Source: Chiloscyllium plagiosum (lineage: Eukaryota). From it: 20,000 bases of DNA. The DNA is taken from assembly GCF_004010195.1 (NCBI RefSeq), contig NC_057759.1:3440545-3460544 (forward strand), given 5' to 3'. How positions within the stretch are numbered: the first letter of the stretch is position 1; every line of letters starts with the position of its first letter. Below are positions 4,536 through 20,000 of the stretch, one piece after another. The notes under the pieces were generated by a model that searched no databases, had not been told where the DNA came from, and worked only from the letters and a program-made list of their open reading frames with translations. A program made the position numbers and the translations under genes.

Positions 4536-4821
4536 TTAGATTTGATTACATTACAGTGTGGAAACAAGTCCACACCGACCCGCCGAAGAGCAACCCACCC
4601 ATTTACCCCTTACCTAACACTACGGGCAATTTAGCATGGCCAATTCACCTGACCTGCACATCTTTGGACTGTGGGAGGAAACCGGAGCACCCGGAGGAAA
4701 CCCACGCAGACACGGAGAGAATGTGCAAACTCCACACAGTCAGTCGCCTGAGGCGGGAATTGAACCCGGGTCTCAGGCGCTGTGAGGCAACAGTGGTAAC
4801 CACTGTGCCACCGTGTCGCCC
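4536..4821 (-). mobile_element. HE1-type SINE, well preserved copy
   Basis: On - strand: A box TGGCACAGTGG (4810-4800), B box GGTTCAATTCC (4766-4756), same core as the 363-710 copy, tail CACACTGTAATGTAATCAAATCTAA. Confidence 0.92.
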
Positions 4822-4985: not shown

Positions 4986-5189
4986 AAACAGCTCATGTGT
5001 TCACTTCTCCTAAAGAGAGACTGTGTGTGTACTGTACTTTTATAATTTAAAAGCAAATTAACGATGAAGTATGAAAACATTATTTTCTATAAAACTCCTT
5101 TCTCTAATCTACGTCTCGGCAGGATGTCCAAATCTGAAGGAAAACGGTTGATGATTTCCCGCCTGCCTTCTCAGCAATGATCATATAGT

Positions 5190-5401
5190 AGTCATGATTT
5201 GGAGATGCCTGTGTTGGATTGGGGTGTACAAAGTTAAAAGTCACACAACACCAGAATATAGTCCAACAGGTTTAATTGAAAGCACTAGCTTTCTGAGCGC
5301 CACTCCTTCATGACAACCACCTGATGAAGGGGCGTCGTTCCGAAAGCTAGTGCTTCCAATTAAACCTGTTGGACTATAACCTGGTGTTGTGTGATTTTTA
5401 A
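5190..5401. mobile_element. Palindromic non-autonomous Penelope-derived element with 15-bp target-site duplication
   Basis: Inverted arms 5233-5311 and 5324-5402 (~79 bp) with a 12-nt loop; flanked by CAATGATCATATAGT at 5175-5189 and 5402-5416; contains a hammerhead core. Confidence 0.85.
5318..5352 (+). ncRNA. Minimal type I hammerhead ribozyme motif (Penelope-type)
   Basis: CAC-CTGATGA-A-GGGGC(GTC)GTTCC-GAAAGCTA-GTG: stem I CAC/GTG, core CUGAUGA 5321-5327, stem II 5329-5333/5337-5341, GAAA 5342-5345, palindromic AGCT, predicted cleavage after CUA (5349). Confidence 0.75.
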
Positions 5402-5792
5402 CAATGATCATATAGTTACAGCTGGTGGGAACGCCAAGGGAGATAATTAGGAGAGAGGGGATTTAATCCGGAACACTCCACTACCTTCATATATGATGTA
5501 CAAATTACATTGCAGTATGTATTCTTTTCACTGCCGCTGAATGGGAATAACTCCCCAGCAATGCATTACTCACTGGTGTTTAACATGCTCGCTTTCTCTC
5601 GGAATAAAAAGACTGACTCGAAAAATTGACTCACTGGTGAATCAATGTTTTTGAAGATGCAAATTAGGAAAGGGAGTAAGGTACGATCGTTTGGAATATA
5701 TTTTTGTAATGGCAAAAACAAATCACCGAATAAGAATTCACACATTCTCCTCTGGCATTTTGGCGGGCTTTTCAATTCGAAATAAAAGCGGC

Positions 5793-5845: not shown

Positions 5846-5861
5846 GGCTCTGAAAAGAGCC
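5846..5861 (-). terminator. Histone mRNA 3' stem-loop of H3
   Basis: - strand AAC-GGCTCTTTTCAGAGCC-ACTAAA (canonical SLBP site), followed by purine-rich AGAGGGAGC (candidate U7 site/HDE) up to the gap. Confidence 0.95.
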
Positions 5862-5917: not shown

Positions 5918-6565
<648 letters not shown>

Positions 6566-7086: not shown

Positions 7087-7737
7087 TCATTTCTTTGCTG
7101 CTGTCTTGGTCACTTTCGCTTTGGGCTTGGTCTTGCTTTTAGCCGGTTTGCTGAGGGGTTTGGGGGTTTTAGGGCCCTTGGTCTTTTTCACCTTCTTCAC
7201 GAGAGTCCGTTTCTTTGGCGCTGCTTTGCTCACCGCTTTCTTTGGCGGTGCCGCCTTCTTGCCGCTCGCTTTCTTGGCTGGGGACTTCTTGGTTGTCGCT
7301 CTCTTGGCTGGGGATTTCTTGGCTGTCGCTTTCTTGGCCGGTGATTTCTTCACGGCCGGTTTCTTGGCAACTGCTGATGTTCCCGCCTTCTTTCCCGCTT
7401 TTGCCTTGACTGGATTTTTAGGGAGTTTGAAGGAGCCGGAGACGCCCTGGCCCTTGACCAGAACAAGGGAGCCGTTCGCCAGGCACCTCCTGATACTCAT
7501 CTTGATCTGTGCCTTTCGCTTTCCCACATCGATCCCGCTTCTCTCCAGCGCCTTCTTTACAGCGGACAGAGACGCCCCTCTGCGATCCTTCATATCCCCG
7601 ACAACCTTCAGAATCAGCTCTCCCAACCCGGGACCGGGTGTTTTCTTCCTGGGAGCCGCCGCCTTCTTCTTGGGAGCCTTGGCTTTGGTAGGAGCGGCGG
7701 CTGGAGGAGCCGTTTCGGCGGCTGCACTGTCGCTCAT
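7087..7737 (-). CDS. H1: Linker histone H1 (divergent H1/H5-family member), 216 aa
   Basis: Ala/Pro/Lys N-tail, winged-helix globular domain ending KGQGVSGSFKL, Lys/Ala-rich C-tail with three KKSPAK repeats; intact, intronless, followed by a stem-loop. Confidence 0.96.
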   Translation of the reverse strand: MSDSAAAETAPPAAAPTKAKAPKKKAAAPRKKTPGPGLGELILKVVGDMKDRRGASLSAVKKALERSGIDVGKRKAQIKMSIRRCLANGSLVLVKGQGVSGSFKLPKNPVKAKAGKKAGTSAVAKKPAVKKSPAKKATAKKSPAKRATTKKSPAKKASGKKAAPPKKAVSKAAPKKRTLVKKVKKTKGPKTPKPLSKPAKSKTKPKAKVTKTAAKK

Positions 7738-9699: not shown

Positions 9700-10769
9700 C
9701 TTCTTTGAGGAGGTGACCAAACAGGTGGATGAGAATAGAGCGGTTGATGTGATGTATTTGGATTTCAGTAAGGCGTTTGACAGTGTTCCCCAAGGTAGGC
9801 TATTACACAAAATATGGAGTCATGTGACTGTGGGTAATTTAGCGGTTCTGATCAAAAGTTGGCTTGCTGAAAGAAGACAGAGGGTGGTGGCTGATGGGCA
9901 ATGTTCATCCTGGAGTTCAGTTACGAGTGTGGTACCGGAAGGATCTGTTTTCGGGCCACTGCTGTTTGTCGTTTTTATAAATGACCTGGACGAGGGTGCA
10001 GAAGGATAGAGTAGTAAAGTTGCGGATGATAGTCGGGTCATTGGAGCTGTGGACAGTGCCGAAGAATGCTGTAGTTTACAAACGTACATTGATAAGCTGC
10101 AGAGATGGGCCAAGAGTTGGCAGATGGAGTTTAATGTGGAAAACTTGGAGGTGATTCACTTTGGAAGGAGGAACAGGAATAAAGAGTACTGGGATAATGG
10201 TAAGATTCTTGGCAGTGTAGTTGAGCAGAGAGATCTCGATATTCATGTACACAGATCGCTGAAAGTAAACACCGAGTTGATAGGTTGTTAAGAGGCCATA
10301 TGGTGTATTAGGTTTTATTGGCACGGGGATTGAGTTTCGAAACCATGTGGTCATGTTAAAGCTGCACAAAAGTCTGGTGCGGCTACACGTAGTAATTTGC
10401 CTATAGTTTGGGTTGCTGCATTATACAAGGATGTGGAAGCTTTGCAAAGGGTTTAGTGGTGAATTGCTAGAATGTTGACTGGTATGGATTGAAGGTCGTA
10501 TGAGGAAAAGCTGAGGGATATGAAGCTGTTTTCATTCGAGAGAATTAATTGGGACATATAAGAAAATCAGAGGATTAGATAGGGTGTTCACTGAGAGCCG
10601 TTCCCTCGAATGGTGTTGGCTAGTACGAGGGGACATAGCTTTAAGTTCAGGGAATATAGTTATATAACAAATGTCAGAGGTATTTGCTTTAGTCAGAGAG
10701 TAGTAGGAGCAACACTTGAAGGCCAAAGGGGCTGCACTGTTCTATAATGTTCTTTGTTCTCTGTTCTAA
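9700..10769 (+). mobile_element. CR1/HER1 LINE, RT domain to 3' tail (pseudogenised)
   Basis: [70 protein letters not shown]; ends in TGTTCT-type tail repeats near 10738-10769. Confidence 0.93.
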
Positions 10770-10770
10770 C

Positions 10771-11095
10771 TACCTCCCTTTTAACTGGATCCTGGATTCC
10801 TGACTGGGAGACCGCAGACATTCTAAATTGACAACAACATCTCCAACACCATCATCCTGAGCACTGGGGCTGCCCAGGGCTATGTGCTCAGTTCACTGCT
10901 GTTCACCCTGCTGAAACTCAACTGTACAACGATGATACGGCTGTAGTGGGTCCCATTAGCAGAAACGACGAGACAGCATTCAGAGAGGAGATGCAGCGTT
11001 TACCAGACTTGTGCAGGGCAAATAACCTTTCTCTGAAGGTGGACAAGACAAAGGAGATAGTTGCTGACTTCATGCTAGCATGGAGTGATCACTGT
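10771..11095 (+). mobile_element. Rex1/Babar-type LINE RT fragment (copy 1)
   Basis: NWILD.LTGRPQT..IDNNISNTIILSTGAAQGYVLSSLLFTLL, then DDTAVVGPISRNDETAFREEMQRL..LCRANNLSLKVDKTKEIVADF. Confidence 0.8.
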
Positions 11096-11428
11096 ATTGA
11101 CAATTTTAAAAGCCAATGATACAATCTGACGTTTTAGGGGTATAAGACCAGGGAAAATTGAACAATTGAGAGGAGGACTGCAAGCCCAACATGTAAACAG
11201 ACTGTTTGCAAAGCGTACTTCTCAATCAGTAACCTGTGACGTAGAAATCCCTAAGAAGAAGAAATTAAGACACAGGAAGGTCCAAATAGAAGAACCAAAA
11301 GCTGCCTGGTTTTGCGATTAGGTGTGTTGTTTTGTAAATCTTAAATGGAAGTTTTATGGGACTAGTGTGATGGAAGGGGAGGTAAAATAGAGGTTAGAAT
11401 AAGGACTTGTACATAATTGTTAAAATTA

Positions 11429-11888
11429 GCTTTTATTGGTACGGGGATTGAGTTTCGAAACCATGTGGTCATGTTAAAGCTGCACAAAATTCTGGTGCGG
11501 CCAAACGTAGTAATTTGTCTATAAATTTGGGTTGCTGCATTATACAAGGATGTGGAAGCTTTGCAAAGGATTTAGTGGTGATTTACTAGAATGTTGACTG
11601 GTATGGATTGAAGGTCGTATGAGGAAAAGCTGAGGGATATGAAGCTGTTTTCATTCGAGAGAATGAATTGGGACATATAAGAAAATCAGAGGATTAGATA
11701 GGGTGTTCACTGAGAGCCATTCCCTCGCATGGTGTTGGCTAGTACGAGGGGACATAGCTTTAAGTTCAGGGAATATAGTTATATGACAAATGTCAGAGGT
11801 ATTTGCTTTAGTCAGAGAGTAGTAGGAGCAACACTTGAAGGCCAAAGGGGCTGCACTGTTCTATAATGTTCTTTGTTCTCTGTTCTAA
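11429..11888 (+). mobile_element. CR1 3' fragment (duplicated copy)
   Basis: Duplicate of 10311-10769. Confidence 0.85.
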
Positions 11889-11889
11889 C

Positions 11890-12214
11890 TACCTCCCTTT
11901 TAACTGGATCCTGGATTCCTGACTGGGAGACCGCAGACATTCTAAATTGACAACAATATCTCCAACACCATCATCCTGAGCACTGGGGCTGCCCAGGGCT
12001 ATGTGCTCAGTTGACTGTTGTTCACCCTGCTGAAACTCAACTGTACAACGATGACACAGCTGTAATGGGTCCCATCAGCAGAAACGACGTGACAGCATTC
12101 AGAGAGGAGATGCAGCGTTTAACAGACTTGTGCAGGGCAAATAACCTTTCTCTGAAGGTGGACAAGACAAAGGAGATAGTTGCTGACTTCATGCTAGCAT
12201 GGAGCGATCACTGT
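11890..12214 (+). mobile_element. Rex1/Babar-type LINE RT fragment (copy 2)
   Basis: ORF 12011..12238 DDTAVMGPISRNDVTAFREEMQRLTDLCRANNLSLKVDKTKEIVADF; duplicate of 10771-11095. Confidence 0.8.
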
Positions 12215-13180
12215 ATTGACAATTTTAAAAGCCAATGATACAATCTGACGTTTTAGGGGTATAAGACCAGGGAAAATTGAACAATTGAGAGGAGGACTGC
12301 AAGCCAAACATGTAAACAGACTGTTTGCAAAAGGTTGTTTTGAAAGGTACTTCTCAATCAGTACCTGTGACGTAGAAATCCCTAAGAAGAAGAAATTAAG
12401 ACACAGGAAGATCCAAATTGAAGAACCAAAAGCTGCCTGGTTTTGCGATTAGATGTGTTGTTTTGTAAATCTTAATTGGAAGTTTTATGGGACTAGTGTG
12501 ATGGAAGGGGAGGTAAAATAGAGGTTAGAGTAAGGACTTGTACATAATTGTTAAAATTATTCTCTATTATACCATAGGAAATAAAGTTGTTAATTTTTAC
12601 TTGAAGTAGTTCTTGGTCACTCGAATTTTTACAGATTACAGCATGGGATAAATCTGATCTGTGTCGCTGGCTTTAAATTAAGCGTGTCGTGATAGTTGGG
12701 GACTTGGATCCGTAATCTGAACTAGTTTGAATATATTTGCGGTACAAAAAAATCTCAGCAGATTTAACTACTTGCACGTGAGCGTCTGAGATCTTTAAAT
12801 GAAACATAGGTGAGACAACTGGTTTAATTTCGGGGACTTGATTAAATTAGAAGTGAGAGATATGACCTTTAAAATTGCTAGATACGTTCTGGGATTTGAA
12901 GATAATTCTCAAATTTGCCAAAACGTGTTTAAAGAAAGGAAAAAAAGCCATACTTTCAGAATTAGCAAATAAGTTAGGTTTTGGGTTTGATCAAGAACAA
13001 TAACAAAGCTGAAATTGTAAAGGACATAGTCAAACACTTAAGTGTGTCGGAGAAACAGGCACGGACTGGTGGAGAAACTTAAATTACAATTTAAGAAAAT
13101 GGAGTTAGAAGAGAAACAAAGAGAGAGAGAGGAAATAGAGAAGGAAAGAGAAAGAGACAGAGAGAAGAGAGAGACAGGAA
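12215..13180 (+). mobile_element. Gypsy LTR retrotransposon relic: partial LTR, degenerate PBS, gag N-terminus (partial LTR also at 11096-11428)
   Basis: CCAAT 12232, TATAA 12260, AATAAA 12580; LTR end ..GTCGTGATA ~12694; TGGGGACTTGGATCCG resembling a tRNA-Pro PBS; ATG 12862 then frameshifted MTFKIA..ELANKLG..KAEIVKDIVKHL..EKLKLQFKKMELEEKQRERE coiled coil. Confidence 0.65.
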
Positions 13181-13182
13181 AC

Positions 13183-16100
13183 CGAGTCTGAGAGAATTTT
13201 AGAGGGTGACGCCCATAAGGATGTAGCTTAATTGGCACAGTGTTTCAGATATCTACATCTTCCACAATTACAATTAGCTCTTCCCAGCCTATTCCCATAT
13301 ATCTGCCAAAGTGATTTTCGTCTAGATGTTTATTGAACAATTTATTCCAAATTCTCATTGCTTCCTCGTTGTCCAATTTAATTTGAGCAATATCAAATTC
13401 AGAATTATCTCTATGATTATATGACTATCTGGATGCGATTCTTCACTTGAACCTGTAGTAAGTACTACATTGTCCTTTTGATTTCCACCCCAAGCAAAAT
13501 ACTGCTTGAGCGTATTAACATGACACACTCTCTCAGTTTTCGGTCGTTCTGGTGTTCTAGTCAAATAATTGAAATCAATGAAATTCTTTTCTTCGGTTTG
13601 AGCAGTCCTTCACTTCTAAAGATGTATATCCTATACGGAATGATACCGACAATGTATCCTCAACTTGCTACACTACTACTTTTTGAACGCTTTTCTGCTT
13701 CCCCTTTCATCATTCGGTTTGCTATTTTTAAATGCTGTTTTGCTAACTTACCGACACTATTTAGCGTCTCCATAAAATGCGACACCAAGTCTAATAACGT
13801 AGTCTCTGAACTCTGACTCACTAATTTTTCGTCATTTGGTTTATGTGGTCCTTTCACCTGATGTCTAAAAAACACTAAGTCCGTTGGACTGAATTTATTT
13901 GATTCAATATGTGCGTCCCTGTTTTCAGTAAGTATATTTGAATTTCTTTATCCCAAGCACTTGGCTACTCTTGTCTGTTGCCCGTCTATATGTGCTTTAA
14001 TTTTGCTGCCACTGTTCTATTGCTCCTTGTGATTCTGCAGTTAATTTCAATTATTTAATTCTTAAGCTATCCATAATAACCCTGAATCAGTTTATGGAAT
14101 AATATGACCCTTGATTCATTTGTATCTCTGTGGGGAATCGTCACACAGGAACGATAGAAATATGTTACTTTTTGACAATCGTTTTAGCTGTGGTATTGTG
14201 TGAAAAGCAAAGCCTATGGAAATGTAGTGGTCATATCTTTTATCGTTAATAACTGTTGATTCACATTTTTTCTGTTTTAAGGAAGGGTGCTAAACAATCA
14301 ACAATAACTCTTTCAAAAGGTTCCTCAACTGCTGGGATCAGTATTAAGCGTATTCGTTTTATCAGTGTCGGAGTTTTTCCTATTATTTGACATCTGTGAT
14401 GTGTTCATCAAAATTCAAACACGCCGTTATGCAGTCCAAGCAACTAAATCGTTTTGTATCTTGAATACAGATTTTCATACTCTGAACTAATGTCCTATTA
14501 GTAACCCATGCTGTACCAGCAATACCCCCTTTGTATAACTTCGGCGGGTCGGTGTGGACTTGTTGGGCCGAAGGGCCTGTTTCTACACTGTAATGTAATC
14601 TAATCTAATCTAATCTTTCCATCTTTCTGTTGTAATTCATCTGCCTTTTCTGAGCTATATTGCCCAATCTGGCTTTCGCTTGTTCTTCCGTCTTCTTCTC
14701 ACTCACTTGATCAAAAAAGATCATGGAACTTCACCTTCCCAATTTTGTTCTTTGAAATTCCTTCCTGTTTTAACCCAAGGCTTTCTGACCTTTTCCCACA
14801 CAGGCAGGAAAACGCCGTGGAATTACTTCCTATAACACTTGTACAGGTTTTTCAATCACAGTAGTCATCACTCCTACTTAGAAACAGCTACTGGTATATC
14901 ATTGATAAGGATAAACTGTATTTCTGGAACAGAGAATTCCACAACTTTGCTACTGTCACTTCACTACTTTTCACCTAAATCTTCTTAACTCACCTTATGT
15001 AATGGAACACTGCTCTTCTCACCATAATTCTGCGTATTATCACCTTTTTCTGCCAATAATCTTCTGCATTACGATATCTCGTAGTCTCTCGCCATTAAAG
15101 GTTCCTTTACTCCATATCCGCTTGAATCATAATTTATTTAATTGTTTCCTGATACACATGATTAAAACTTACCCATACAAATCCATTCTTGAAGAGATCC
15201 AGCAGTTTGTTACTAAATAACCTCTGAACAGAGTTTTTACTTTCCTTGCACTTCGTTTGCAGGTTTTTTACTTTCCTTGCGCTTTCTCTTCCCACTTTAA
15301 AAAACCTCACTATCTTATTCTGTTTAAACACTCCAGTTCTTCCAGTGGCTTTTTAAAACCACGAAAACTGTGATGCATGGTTCAACTGTATTACAGAGAA
15401 AATACCTGTGATTTGTTTTTTCCAGGTGTAATACACGCGTCTATTTCTTTTTAAACCTGTGGTAAACTCTTCTTTGTACCTTTATAGATATTTCCTTTTC
15501 CTTTACCATTTGAGTTTCTTGTTTTTTTTTATCCCAATTTCTGTCCATGACTGACTGAAATTCATGTCGGAGGTCAAACTTTAAGAAATGAACATCTCAT
15601 TACCATTTGCAATCTCTGTCGAGAAACTTGCTGTCGTAATCCTCTGCATTTCCACAAGAGTTCTCACTGGTTAAGGGAATGAATATTTGAACATGTCCAG
15701 TGTAACAGTCTCGCTAAGTGGGTCATGCAATCTGAATTATTTTCAATGTTTTTATCCAGCTTTCAAAGTTACATTGTTTGAACTTTCCAAATTGTAGGTA
15801 TGTCAGAGCAGATTCCTTCTTTAGGTTCCAAAGACATTGCCTGTATGCTTCTGGAACGAATTTATAAACGCATAAAATCGTTTTTTTTTTGCTTTAACCT
15901 CATCATGCTCCATAGCTACTTGCTGCGACAGTGAAGCAACGACCTCATTTGCAATACCTCCTAAATTATGGTTGAATTAACAATATCCAAGTATTCAGTG
16001 GACATGTGATTTATCAAGCCATTTTCTCAAACTAACTGAAAAAACACACTTCCCTCTCTTCGAACTTGATAACACTTCGTGTGTATTTAACCAGATCCCA

Positions 16101-17117: not shown

Positions 17118-17228
17118 AGGATGAAGGGCAAATGGTCGTAATGTCGATTCTCCTGATACTCGGGTGCTGCCTTACCGGCTGTGCTTTTCCACCACCACAC
17201 TCTTCCGGTCTGATCCGGACCATCTGCA
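17118..17228 (+). mobile_element. 3'-end fragment of another Penelope-derived repeat with a decayed hammerhead-like motif
   Basis: GATGA-A-GGGC-AAAT-GGTC-GTAA-TGTC then GATTCTCCTG..GCTGCCT..GCTGTGCTTTTCCA..CATCTGCA; resembles a common shark repeat (from memory). Confidence 0.45.
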
Positions 17229-17450
17229 AACAAAGACACGCACAAGAATTCCTAGAAGCATGGCATTTCAACCGGAACTCTATAAACAAACACATGGAGT
17301 TGAACTCCATCTACCACCCCCTGAGAAAAGGAACAGGAAGTGACTTCACCATAGGAAATAACATCACCACAGGAAATGACACCATAAACCCAAAGAAACC
17401 CAAACATATAACTAGAAAGCAGGAATTCTCAGCATTGCTTCGCCTGAGGC

Positions 17451-17490
17451 CCACTGAAGATGTTACCTAGTAGGGTAATGAAATGTCTGG
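17451..17490 (+). ncRNA. Minimal type I hammerhead ribozyme motif in the 5' pseudo-LTR
   Basis: CCA-CTGAAGA-T-GTTACC(TAGTAG)GGTAAT-GAAATGTC-TGG: stem I CCA/TGG, CUGANGA 17454-17460, stem II 17462-17467/17474-17479, GAAA 17480-17483, GUC site ending 17487. Confidence 0.75.
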
Positions 17491-17559
17491 AAATGAACTT
17501 TGCAGGTCCGCGAGCAAGCCTACATCCAAAACCTCAAACTGAGCGACACATCTTCTCAA

Positions 17560-19870
17560 AACTCACTAAGACCTATGGGCCCAATACGCTAAAACGGCCC
17601 TAAAATGGGAAATGAATGCCATCCAACAGAGGGCACCCGCGAACAGCTGTACTTCCTGCACGAATGCCTCAGGAAACAGGTACTACCTAAATGTTTTCAA
17701 TACGAACCTCCGCTTAACACTCCATTAACCATAAGAATAGCAGAGCAAAACAGCAATAGAATGCTTTGAGAAATGATGAATGAAGCCCACAACAGTCTAC
17801 GTAAATACAACTGGGAAAATTTGCGTCAAAGGTCCTTACTCAGTCATGCAACAGACCATGAATGGATAGATACAGTACAACAAACCATAGATATTATACA
17901 GCGACAAGCACAGAAAATGAAAAAAAAACTAGCCCTGCAGAAAAAAAAAACTAGACAAACTTAAACAAAGAAACAACACTGACAACACAGAAGTATGGAT
18001 AAAAAACTTATCTGACCGACCCTTAACATACACTGAAAAAGCCGTCCTAGTAAGAGGATTAAATTACAGCTGCCAGGATGCGGACAAGATTTCTAAGCAG
18101 CATTAGAAGCAACGCAAAAAGATTCCAACTCACAGAAGAAACCCAGCAAACCATCAGACATTTAGTCGCACCAACATTAAGCAGAAAAAAGGAAGGAAAC
18201 ACACTCAATACACAAGAAAGGAAGGCACTAGAAAGACTAAATTAAAGATCAAAACACTGTTCTCCTACCTGCAGATAAAGGACGCTTGACAGTCATTCTA
18301 AATCGAGGAGACTACATTGAAAAAGCGAACGCACTACTTACAGATACCAACACGTACCAACAAATGGCGATAGACCCGACCCCACAAGTAGAGAACCGAA
18401 TCACAGCCCCACTCAAACAACTTCAGAAATCTGGAGAAATAAATAAGACCAACTTCCAAAAAATGAAACCAGACGGATCAAACACACCACGCTTCTATGG
18501 ATTACCCAAAATAACAAATCAGGAGCCCCCCTCAGACCCATGGTCTCACTACCTGGAACACCAACTTACAGATTAGCCAAGGAGCTACACCAAAGTTTAA
18601 AATACGTAGTAGAAGACACACACCACTCCATCTACTCCACCCAAGAATTCCTGAAGCCCATCAAAGGCGCTTAGATAGAAGAGGATGAAATAATAGTCTC
18701 CTTTGATGTAACAGCCCTGCTTACATCAATCGACATTAATCTGGCCAAGGAAACAGTGACTACACTATTAGAAGATCCAAAGACATATACACCAACACCA
18801 CTAACTTCATCAACAAGGACAGTATCAACAAGCAAGTGGACCTATGCCTTACCACACAGTTCACCTTCAACAACAACGCCTACAGACAAACCTATGGAAC
18901 ACCCATGAGATCTCCGATATCAGAGTTCTTAGCTAAGGCAGTAATGCAGAGAATTGAACAAATGGTTCTGCTAAACATCCAACCCAAACTTTGGGTTCGC
19001 TACGTGGATGATACCTTCGTCATCACTAAACGAAACAAATTAGAGGAAACCTTCAAGACCATCAATGATACCGTTACTGGCATAACATTCACTAAAGAGG
19101 AGGAAAACAACAACAAACGGCCATTCTCAGATGTCACAGTAGAGCAAACAACCAATAGGGAACTTCAAACCAGCATCTACAGTAAAACAACACATACAGA
19201 CCAAATATTGAACTACAGAAACAATCATCCCAACACCCACAAACGAAGTTGCATCAGAACATTATCTCTAGAGCCAACACACACTGCAGCACAGAGGAAC
19301 TACGCAGAGCAGAGGAAAAAAAAACACTTATACCGTGTATTCAAAAAGAATAGATACCCAATGAACACAGTCCACCGATTTCTTAGCAACAATCCCAAAT
19401 AAGAAGACAAAACACATCCAGAAACCCTAGCCACTCTCCCCCTACATCAAAGACATGTCGAAAGTGACTGCCAGACTACTCAGTTCCCTTGGCATCATGG
19501 TAGCCCACAAACCCTCCAACACACCAGAACAGCAGCTAATGAACTTGAAAGACCCAATACGGACAACGAACAAAACTAAAGTCATTTACAAAATACCGTG
19601 CAAGGACTGTAACAAACACTACATTGGATAAACAATCAGAACACTTGCCACCAGGATACATGAACACCAACTAGCCACAAAAAAGACATGACCCTCTCTC
19701 ACTAATATGCTGACATACGGATGAGGAAGTACACCACTTCGACTGGGACAGCACATTCATCCTAGGAAAAGCCAAACAAAGAGACGCACGATAATTTCTA
19801 GAAGCATGGCATTCCAACCGCAGGTCTGTCAACAAACACATCAAGTTAGACCCCATCTACCACCCCCCTG
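17560..19870 (+). pseudogene. Disrupted Penelope RT/GIY-YIG endonuclease ORF
   Basis: WIKNLSDRPLT, PADKGRLTVILNR, PRFYGLPK, SFDVTALLTSI, GTPMRSPIS, RYVDD (YVDD 19001-19012), VIYKIPCKDCNKHYIG*T.R.L..RIHEH (from 19581), FLEAWH. Confidence 0.9.
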
Positions 19871-19969
19871 AGAAAAGGAACAGGAAGTGACTTCTCCACA
19901 GGAAATGACATTACCGACCCAAAAGATAAATAGAAAGCAGAAATCATCAGCAGTGCTTCGCCCAGAGGC

Positions 19970-20000
19970 CCACTGAAGATGTTACCTAGTAGGGTGACTA
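19970..20000 (+). ncRNA. Hammerhead motif in the 3' pseudo-LTR (cut by the window edge, probably mutated)
   Basis: CCA-CTGAAGA-T-GTTACC(TAGTAG)GGTGAC-TA; the G of GAAA appears replaced by T. Confidence 0.6.

Follow-up and report, generated by a model that had tools for sequence, protein, structure and literature searches.

The 212-nt palindromic insert beside a histone H3 gene of Chiloscyllium plagiosum is one of thousands of short Penelope footprints, and not a separate ribozyme element. We consider it probable, at roughly three chances in four, that it is a minimal one-off insertion of a Penelope-like element (PLE), formed by the head-to-head joining of two separately primed cDNAs, each copied from the capped, uncleaved 5' end of a sense RNA. 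This reading draws on the structure of the insert and of its parent element, on the points at which the arms of many related palindromes end, and on an extra G that marks these ends.

The insert and its target site

The window, that is, the whole stretch of DNA that was analysed, is 20,000 nucleotides long and contains the following features.

5175 to 5189, plus strand: left copy of the target-site duplication (TSD), whose last 5 nt (ATAGT) are also an antisense match to the parent's first codons
5190 to 5311, minus strand: long, tailed arm, a copy of parent 5'UTR that reaches from within the hammerhead core (AUGA) to one codon past the start codon
5190 to 5232, minus strand: 43-nt Penelope tail, between two inferred reverse transcription start sites, with the parent ATG at 5195 to 5193
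5312, plus strand: extra G, where the parent has C and a continuation of the partner arm would also give C; likely a copy of the mRNA cap
5313 to 5401, plus strand: short tail-less arm, from the inferred transcription start (A+1) to the proximal start site TTTTTAA
5318 to 5352, plus strand: minimal type I hammerhead motif, with a predicted cut after 5349; predicted to be masked in the hairpin
5359 to 5364, plus strand: ATTAAA hexamer resembling a polyadenylation signal
5402 to 5416, plus strand: right copy of the TSD
5918 to 6328, minus strand: histone H3 gene, named from its recognisable protein sequence

The structural description given in the first-pass annotation holds. The duplication CAATGATCATATAGT is present at both 5175-5189 and 5402-5416 (15 bp), and the hairpin arms, 5233-5311 and 5324-5402, are 79 nt each, 89% complementary and spaced by 12 nt; the insert folds with -129 kcal/mol (z -14.8), a stability equalled by none of 200 shuffles. 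As had been described, the CTG is missing from the left arm, its stem II closing pair is broken, and it extends 43 nt beyond the right arm. The closing pair is intact in the left arm of the sister copies L143 and L144, so its change in the window postdates the insertion. That the repeat is a true TSD is borne out by paralogous spacers downstream of H3 genes, 23 of which were found by flank search and 20 examined: 16 are insert-free and carry the target motif once, some with changes, and four carry the insert at the identical base. With 16 spacers empty and four filled, the window insert is, as judged from these sequences, a single insertion with a true 15-bp TSD that was later duplicated along with the H3 spacer. 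The overlap of the left TSD copy with the parent's first codons (ATAGT) is possibly a primer-template microhomology. The symmetric terminal inverted repeats of a MITE are absent, as the 43-nt tail makes the ends differ, and a MITE (a DNA transposon derivative) was rejected on this asymmetry and on the retroelement-derived sequence.

Three segmental duplicates of the window insertion (L142, L143 and L144) lie on contig C50 and provide a small natural series against which duplications of the histone unit could be dated. Most of the 23 related H3 spacers are on this contig, which points to a dispersed histone cluster. In a further paralogous spacer (L155), a different insert starts 7 nt past the identical target motif and resembles another hammerhead-bearing shark repeat. 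Within the window, what we take to be the histone mRNA 3' stem-loop of the H3 gene lies at 5846-5861 on the minus strand, and about 430 nt would be expected to separate the end of the mature H3 mRNA from the insert, leaving the insert outside the mRNA. A linker histone H1 gene (7087-7737, minus strand; Pfam PF00538) adjoins H3. By eye, a tandem duplication of about 1.15 kb with LINE-like fragments occupies about 10290-11420 and 11440-12560, and the stretches 4540-4815, 370-700 and 14540-14615 presumably represent whole or partial copies of a SINE-like repeat that is common in sharks.

The parent element

The suggestion that the insert is a non-coding mobile insertion of Penelope origin with inverted pseudo-LTR (pLTR) ends is borne out. 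A 33-nt tail motif from the left end of the insert has 8,375 exact matches in the genome, and long relatives continue upstream into a CA-rich region and then the end of an open reading frame (ORF). The parent ORF bears YIDD, a C-x4-C-xx-C linker (L197, L200) and a GIY-YIG-type domain with two cysteines, and it contains a VYLIRCRQGCPEAWYIGET-type segment, as in endonuclease-containing PLEs (definition in PMC8557442). Over about 4 kb, L227 and L232 show the order pLTR, ORF start, YIDD, endonuclease end and tailed pLTR, that is, the single ORF of a PLE, with reverse transcriptase (RT) followed by a C-terminal GIY-YIG domain, between pLTRs; in L212 and L228 both pLTRs are visible with gaps in between. 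The parent copies seen are interrupted by stops, frameshifts or gaps. Among the atlas neighbours of the parent protein are RVT_1, GIY-YIG and HTH_animal clusters at 0.96, while a Pfam scan of a 422-aa parent fragment returned no family and a PDB search with this fragment no match. A CX2-5CxxC zinc-finger linker precedes the endonuclease, as in Neptune and Nematis elements, and by the definitions of PMC8557442 the parent is assigned as a Neptune- or Nematis-type PLE.

Seven of 30 loci found by the RT N-terminus have a same-sense pLTR upstream, and in six of these seven candidates the ORF begins at the tail-ending ATG. Because this ATG lies within the left end of the window insert, both arms are shown, at the level of sequence, to be copies of the parent pseudo-LTR and 5'UTR, and the 43 extra bases correspond to the tail known from Penelope elements (PMC11167929, PMC3846280).

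A second, unrelated PLE lies at 17130-20000 of the window. It has YVDD, a GIY-YIG-like stretch, broken frames and two direct pLTRs, and a hammerhead-like motif that starts at 17454 and repeats near 19970; its protein likeness to the parent studied here is weak.

Palindromes are built anew at each insertion

The insert had been proposed to be a discrete retrozyme- or SINE-like unit. Such a discrete, non-autonomous, ribozyme-bearing palindromic family, with a copied 212-nt unit and a switch between hairpin and ribozyme, is now barely credible. The top BLAST matches would seem to favour it, as all 40 that were scored cover nearly all of the 212 nt at 88-100% identity, the outer ends are alike in the 30 examined, and palindrome lengths, which range from about 100 to 1300 bp, cluster near 175-230 nt. 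However, top matches are selected for likeness, and yet their centres differ. This set was rejected as a family test for that reason and replaced by 90 loci ordered by position, namely the first 90 of the 8,375 tail matches, all on contig C1. An inverted arm is present at 59 of the 90, the other 31 being solo arms, long arms that run beyond the range examined, or interrupted copies. Among the 59 inverted arms, 52 end at reference positions 33-42, the tail-less point, which gives the form of a Penelope-type insertion, with an inverted 5' pLTR and a tail of 30-40 nt at one end only. A TSD of 12-15 bp accompanies 39 of the 59 loci with one mismatch allowed, and its length is variable, as in Penelope-type insertions.

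When the arms lie no more than 15 nt apart, the junctions can be compared closely, and 48 of 49 such pairs are distinct, which indicates that each palindrome is built anew at insertion. The first-pass annotation had itself reasoned that random breakpoints would mark one-off Penelope products and speak against a discrete unit. The junctions do differ, and the discrete unit falls with them, but the breakpoints are not random, being concentrated at the likely transcription start (see below). Copies with the window junction also share its flanks and are thus segmental duplicates, and the ribozyme fold has a probability below 1e-10 within the hairpin, both of which count further against a discrete family. 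One shared internal sequence and junction at unrelated sites, as in a SINE-like family, was not found among these loci, nor were the head-to-tail units of a non-LTR retrozyme with a hammerhead in each, the insert being a single head-to-head pair. Genome-wide, a few small secondary families could exist.

Arms end at a likely transcription start and carry an extra G

In reference coordinates, the ribozyme cut falls at 95/96, position 124 is core C3, and position 132 is the A of the motif ACAAYCAC. Position 120 is reached by 102 of the 149 arms, and 71 of these end by position 140, an arm-end hazard of 0.035 per nt as against 0.002-0.009 elsewhere. The pile-up sits just upstream of the ribozyme core, and only 6 of the 149 arms end in the 90-99 bin, which contains the ribozyme cut. 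Ribozyme-cleaved RNA was rejected as a template, since the arm ends do not pile up at the cut site.

The parent base before the A of ACAAYCAC is C, and 725 exact matches genome-wide bear another base at this position: in the first 100 of these, G occurs 86 times, T 10 times and A 4 times. At the two neighbouring positions, G makes up 27 of the first 100 non-parent bases (of 298 matches) and 14 of the first 100 (of 400 matches), against which the excess of G is marked (Fisher p 1e-17 and 4e-26). The window subfamily has 59 G, 29 T and 12 A in the first 100 of 1,842 matches; all of these bases were counted by hand in the first 100 matches. At five of five loci picked for it, the extra G stands on both arms with a separate filler in between, and the window G at 5312 matches neither parent nor partner. 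Upstream of the G, the 21 arms inspected continue into the partner arm at varying points, into filler or into target DNA. Given this variation, the idea that the G came from a second parent, one whose upstream sequence differs, was rejected. Point mutation was also rejected, as about 620 G copies (86% of 725) are set against 1,852 parent-like ones and a transversion of this kind belongs to the rarest class.

In 59 long arms, TATAAA starts 30 nt (43 arms), 32 nt (15 arms) or 28 nt (one arm) before the A. Reverse transcriptases are able to copy the mRNA cap as an extra G. The simplest reading is that RNA polymerase II would start at the A and that the cap would be copied as the G. A pile-up at TATA +30-32, with an extra G and on both arms, argues that the arms probably arose as run-off cDNAs on a capped sense RNA that had not been cleaved. 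Other templates exist as well, given that many arms, with 1,852 exact parent-like matches, extend past the start point.

The same arm ends could be ascribed to 5' truncation and inversion from the 3' pLTR of a long transcript, with the RT stalling past the hammerhead and either adding an untemplated C or being joined preferentially after a partner G. This would be in line with a pile-up that borders a structured motif on its upstream side, with a G that, in about two thirds of the 21 G-start arms inspected, could also be the next base of the partner arm, and with the occurrence of long arms of every size. However, a stall would be expected at the entry of the stem and not 8 nt past its exit, and the excess of G is limited to one position, is located at TATA +30 and affects both arms simultaneously. 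In two G-start arms (L127 and L128), moreover, the G abuts target DNA. Truncation with stalling is on these grounds unlikely.

A model of two cDNAs joined head to head

The preferred model proposes that the endonuclease nicks both target strands, 12-15 nt apart, and that each 3' end would then prime reverse transcription at one of two internal sites, one cDNA starting from the start-codon site and the other from a site about 40 nt upstream. Each cDNA would extend 90-130 nt to the RNA 5' end, where the cap is copied, or would stop short, and the free cDNA ends may be joined by microhomology or by a short templated filler. The RNA template could be either the coding mRNA or a transcript from another pLTR. 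The window copy would later have been duplicated with the H3 spacer and would now be decaying. In vitro, an element from the anole has been found to cut and extend both target strands, to use two internal start sites that bound the tail and to use uncleaved RNA (PMC11167929).

The junctions of L131, L237 and L238 hold fillers of 7-40 nt made of repeated arm-end pieces, similar to the scars of templated end joining, and these repeated pieces suggest end-joining repair. In 22 of 49 close palindromes, and likewise in the window, the tail-less arm extends at least 8 nt further 5' than the tailed arm, so that neither arm is a subset of the other. A 2-nt subfamily indel agrees in 45 of 51 arm pairs and is discordant in six, with about 21 discordant pairs expected if arms were paired at random; most arms thus come from one RNA, or from one subfamily at a time. 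The six discordant pairs hint at two RNAs in some events, although slippage in a TG repeat could also be their source.

Fold-back or self-priming, possibly on an antisense template and as considered for rotifer Penelopes, offers another route to a palindrome, in which a strand snaps back and copies itself. It has been put forward for head-to-head junctions (PMC3846280), and both the indel agreement in 45 of 51 arm pairs and the near-symmetric junctions of 17 of 49 palindromes would suit it. However, a self-copied arm can only repeat all or part of the first arm, whereas in the window and in the 22 palindromes with the longer tail-less arm neither arm is contained in the other; in addition, both arms carry the extra G that marks a sense RNA 5' end. 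Fold-back is accordingly rated very unlikely, and two separately primed cDNAs remain the preferred reading.

The hammerhead motif and its predicted masking

The hammerhead elements reported at first pass are all present. Stem I is formed by CAC (5318-5320) and GTG (5350-5352), and the core comprises CTGATGA (5321-5327), a bulged A (5328), GAAA (5342-5345) and the AGCT palindrome; stem II (5329-5333 with 5337-5341) has 5 bp, including two G-U pairs. The motif thus has what defines the minimal type I hammerhead, for which the criteria were taken from PMC4209133: CUGANGA and GAAA, a bulged base before stem II, G10.1-C11.1, a palindromic stem III and an NUH site. An Rfam search at the gathering score returned none of 4,227 families, and the minimal hammerhead was not picked up. 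When stems I and II are forced, the penalty is 35 kcal/mol in the full insert, 18-35 kcal/mol in the transcribed prefixes tested, 5 kcal/mol in the right arm alone and 4 kcal/mol in a natural parent 5'UTR. The fold is costly in every prefix tested because the antisense arm is transcribed first, and the ribozyme of the window copy is therefore predicted by folding to be masked by the hairpin. In a dimer cofold, the hammerhead dimer is not the minimum-energy structure, though a simple cofold is blind to tertiary folding.

Among the sister copies of the window insertion, one carries mutations in C3 and in the AGCU palindrome, another has lost the core and the third is unreadable. The idea that a transcript could switch between hairpin and active ribozyme is undermined by the 35 kcal/mol penalty and by a core that is mutated or deleted in two of the three readable copies of the window insertion. 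Nothing points to a selected ribozyme switch, and we propose that the ribozyme is a passenger and that the window copy is decaying. A transcript of the hairpin could, as far as the predicted fold goes, feed small-RNA pathways.

RNA ends and the polyadenylation site

In a poly(A) single-cell run, 2,936 reads belong to the family; they come from many copies, perhaps inside host transcripts. Loose poly(A) ends occur behind 5376 (424 reads) and 5379 (710 reads), 12-15 nt past ATTAAA, and 231 family reads continue past 5402 into tail sequence. The flanks of the window locus have zero depth with 2 in 100 of the run read, which is not taken to bear on whether the window copy is expressed, and the H3 gene body lies outside the coverage. 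The family reads show that polyadenylation takes place within the pLTR, at a site that lies upstream of both priming sites, and with thousands of copies present, this site may end many host transcripts. If element mRNA ends at the pLTR poly(A) site, the priming sites exist only at the mRNA 5' end, which would explain the dominance of short stubs. In that case long copies would depend either on read-through RNA, with which the 231 reads are compatible, or on a strand jump.

The retroviral strong-stop scheme suggests an analogy with LTRs. Penelope pLTRs might resemble retroviral LTRs in having a TATA promoter, a cap-to-poly(A) repeat with the hammerhead and then a priming stretch found only at the 5' end; a strong-stop product would run off at the cap and jump to the repeat at the poly(A) end to give long copies, and the short palindromes would be paired strong-stop products integrated without a jump. 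This extension of the model is tentative and, on balance, doubtful.

Relation to known elements

The architecture of the insert is already known. In Adineta, Pen2a insertions likewise consist of a head-to-head, tail-less inverted pLTR with a 30-40 bp tail at one end that includes the ORF start (PMC3846280; PMC8557442, Fig. 2), and they also have a variable TSD, as well as a pLTR that contains TATA and initiator-like sequence. The window insert differs from them in lacking the element body and in having two arms that each stop at the likely cap. Inverted copies are described in these two papers as 5'-truncated or self-primed, and the extra G is unmentioned in the portions of them that are accessible. 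With Poseidon PAc of Anolis carolinensis (PMC11167929), the shark elements would share the two tail-bounding start sites, the cutting and extension of both strands and the uncleaved template. In PAc, however, the ORF starts inside the hammerhead and the start sites lie within the ORF, whereas the ORF of the shark parent starts at the tail end; the PAc work was done in vitro, and neither palindromes nor caps appear in its accessible text, word search included.

Minimal hammerheads of metazoan PLEs (PMC4209133) share with the window motif the short helix I, the bulge between 9 and 10.1, G10.1-C11.1 and the palindromic 15.2-16.2, and pairs of motifs on opposite strands, 100-700 bp apart, are reported there. 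The window hammerhead differs in a stem I of just 3 bp and in its predicted sequestration by the antisense arm. Non-LTR retrozymes (10.64898/2026.07.22.740005) are likewise short, non-coding, PLE-derived and provided with a type I hammerhead; they consist of units repeated in tandem, head to tail, each with its own ribozyme, in contrast to the head-to-head pair of the window insert, with one intact motif and a site-unique junction. The new part is therefore the family-wide cap signature: neither a cap-derived G nor palindromic Penelope stubs of sharks were found in print, in a limited literature search of mostly open papers without their supplements.

Implications

The locus itself is ordinary and probably without a function for H3. 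For repeat annotation it carries a warning, as palindromes of this kind mimic a SINE or MITE family in a list of top BLAST matches. The origin of Penelope inverted repeats, and the choice between a sense and an antisense template, are left open in the accessible text of PMC3846280 and PMC8557442. The G added at TATA +30 on both arms, together with the absence of an arm-end pile-up at the cut site, provides genomic evidence, from hundreds of natural insertions, for a capped and uncleaved sense template. The signature thus bears on both the question of sense versus antisense and that of fold-back versus two cDNAs, and makes both testable; it extends the in vitro result from the anole and yields exact predictions of 5' ends. 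The insert beside H3 can in this way be read as a record of the mode by which Penelope elements are copied.
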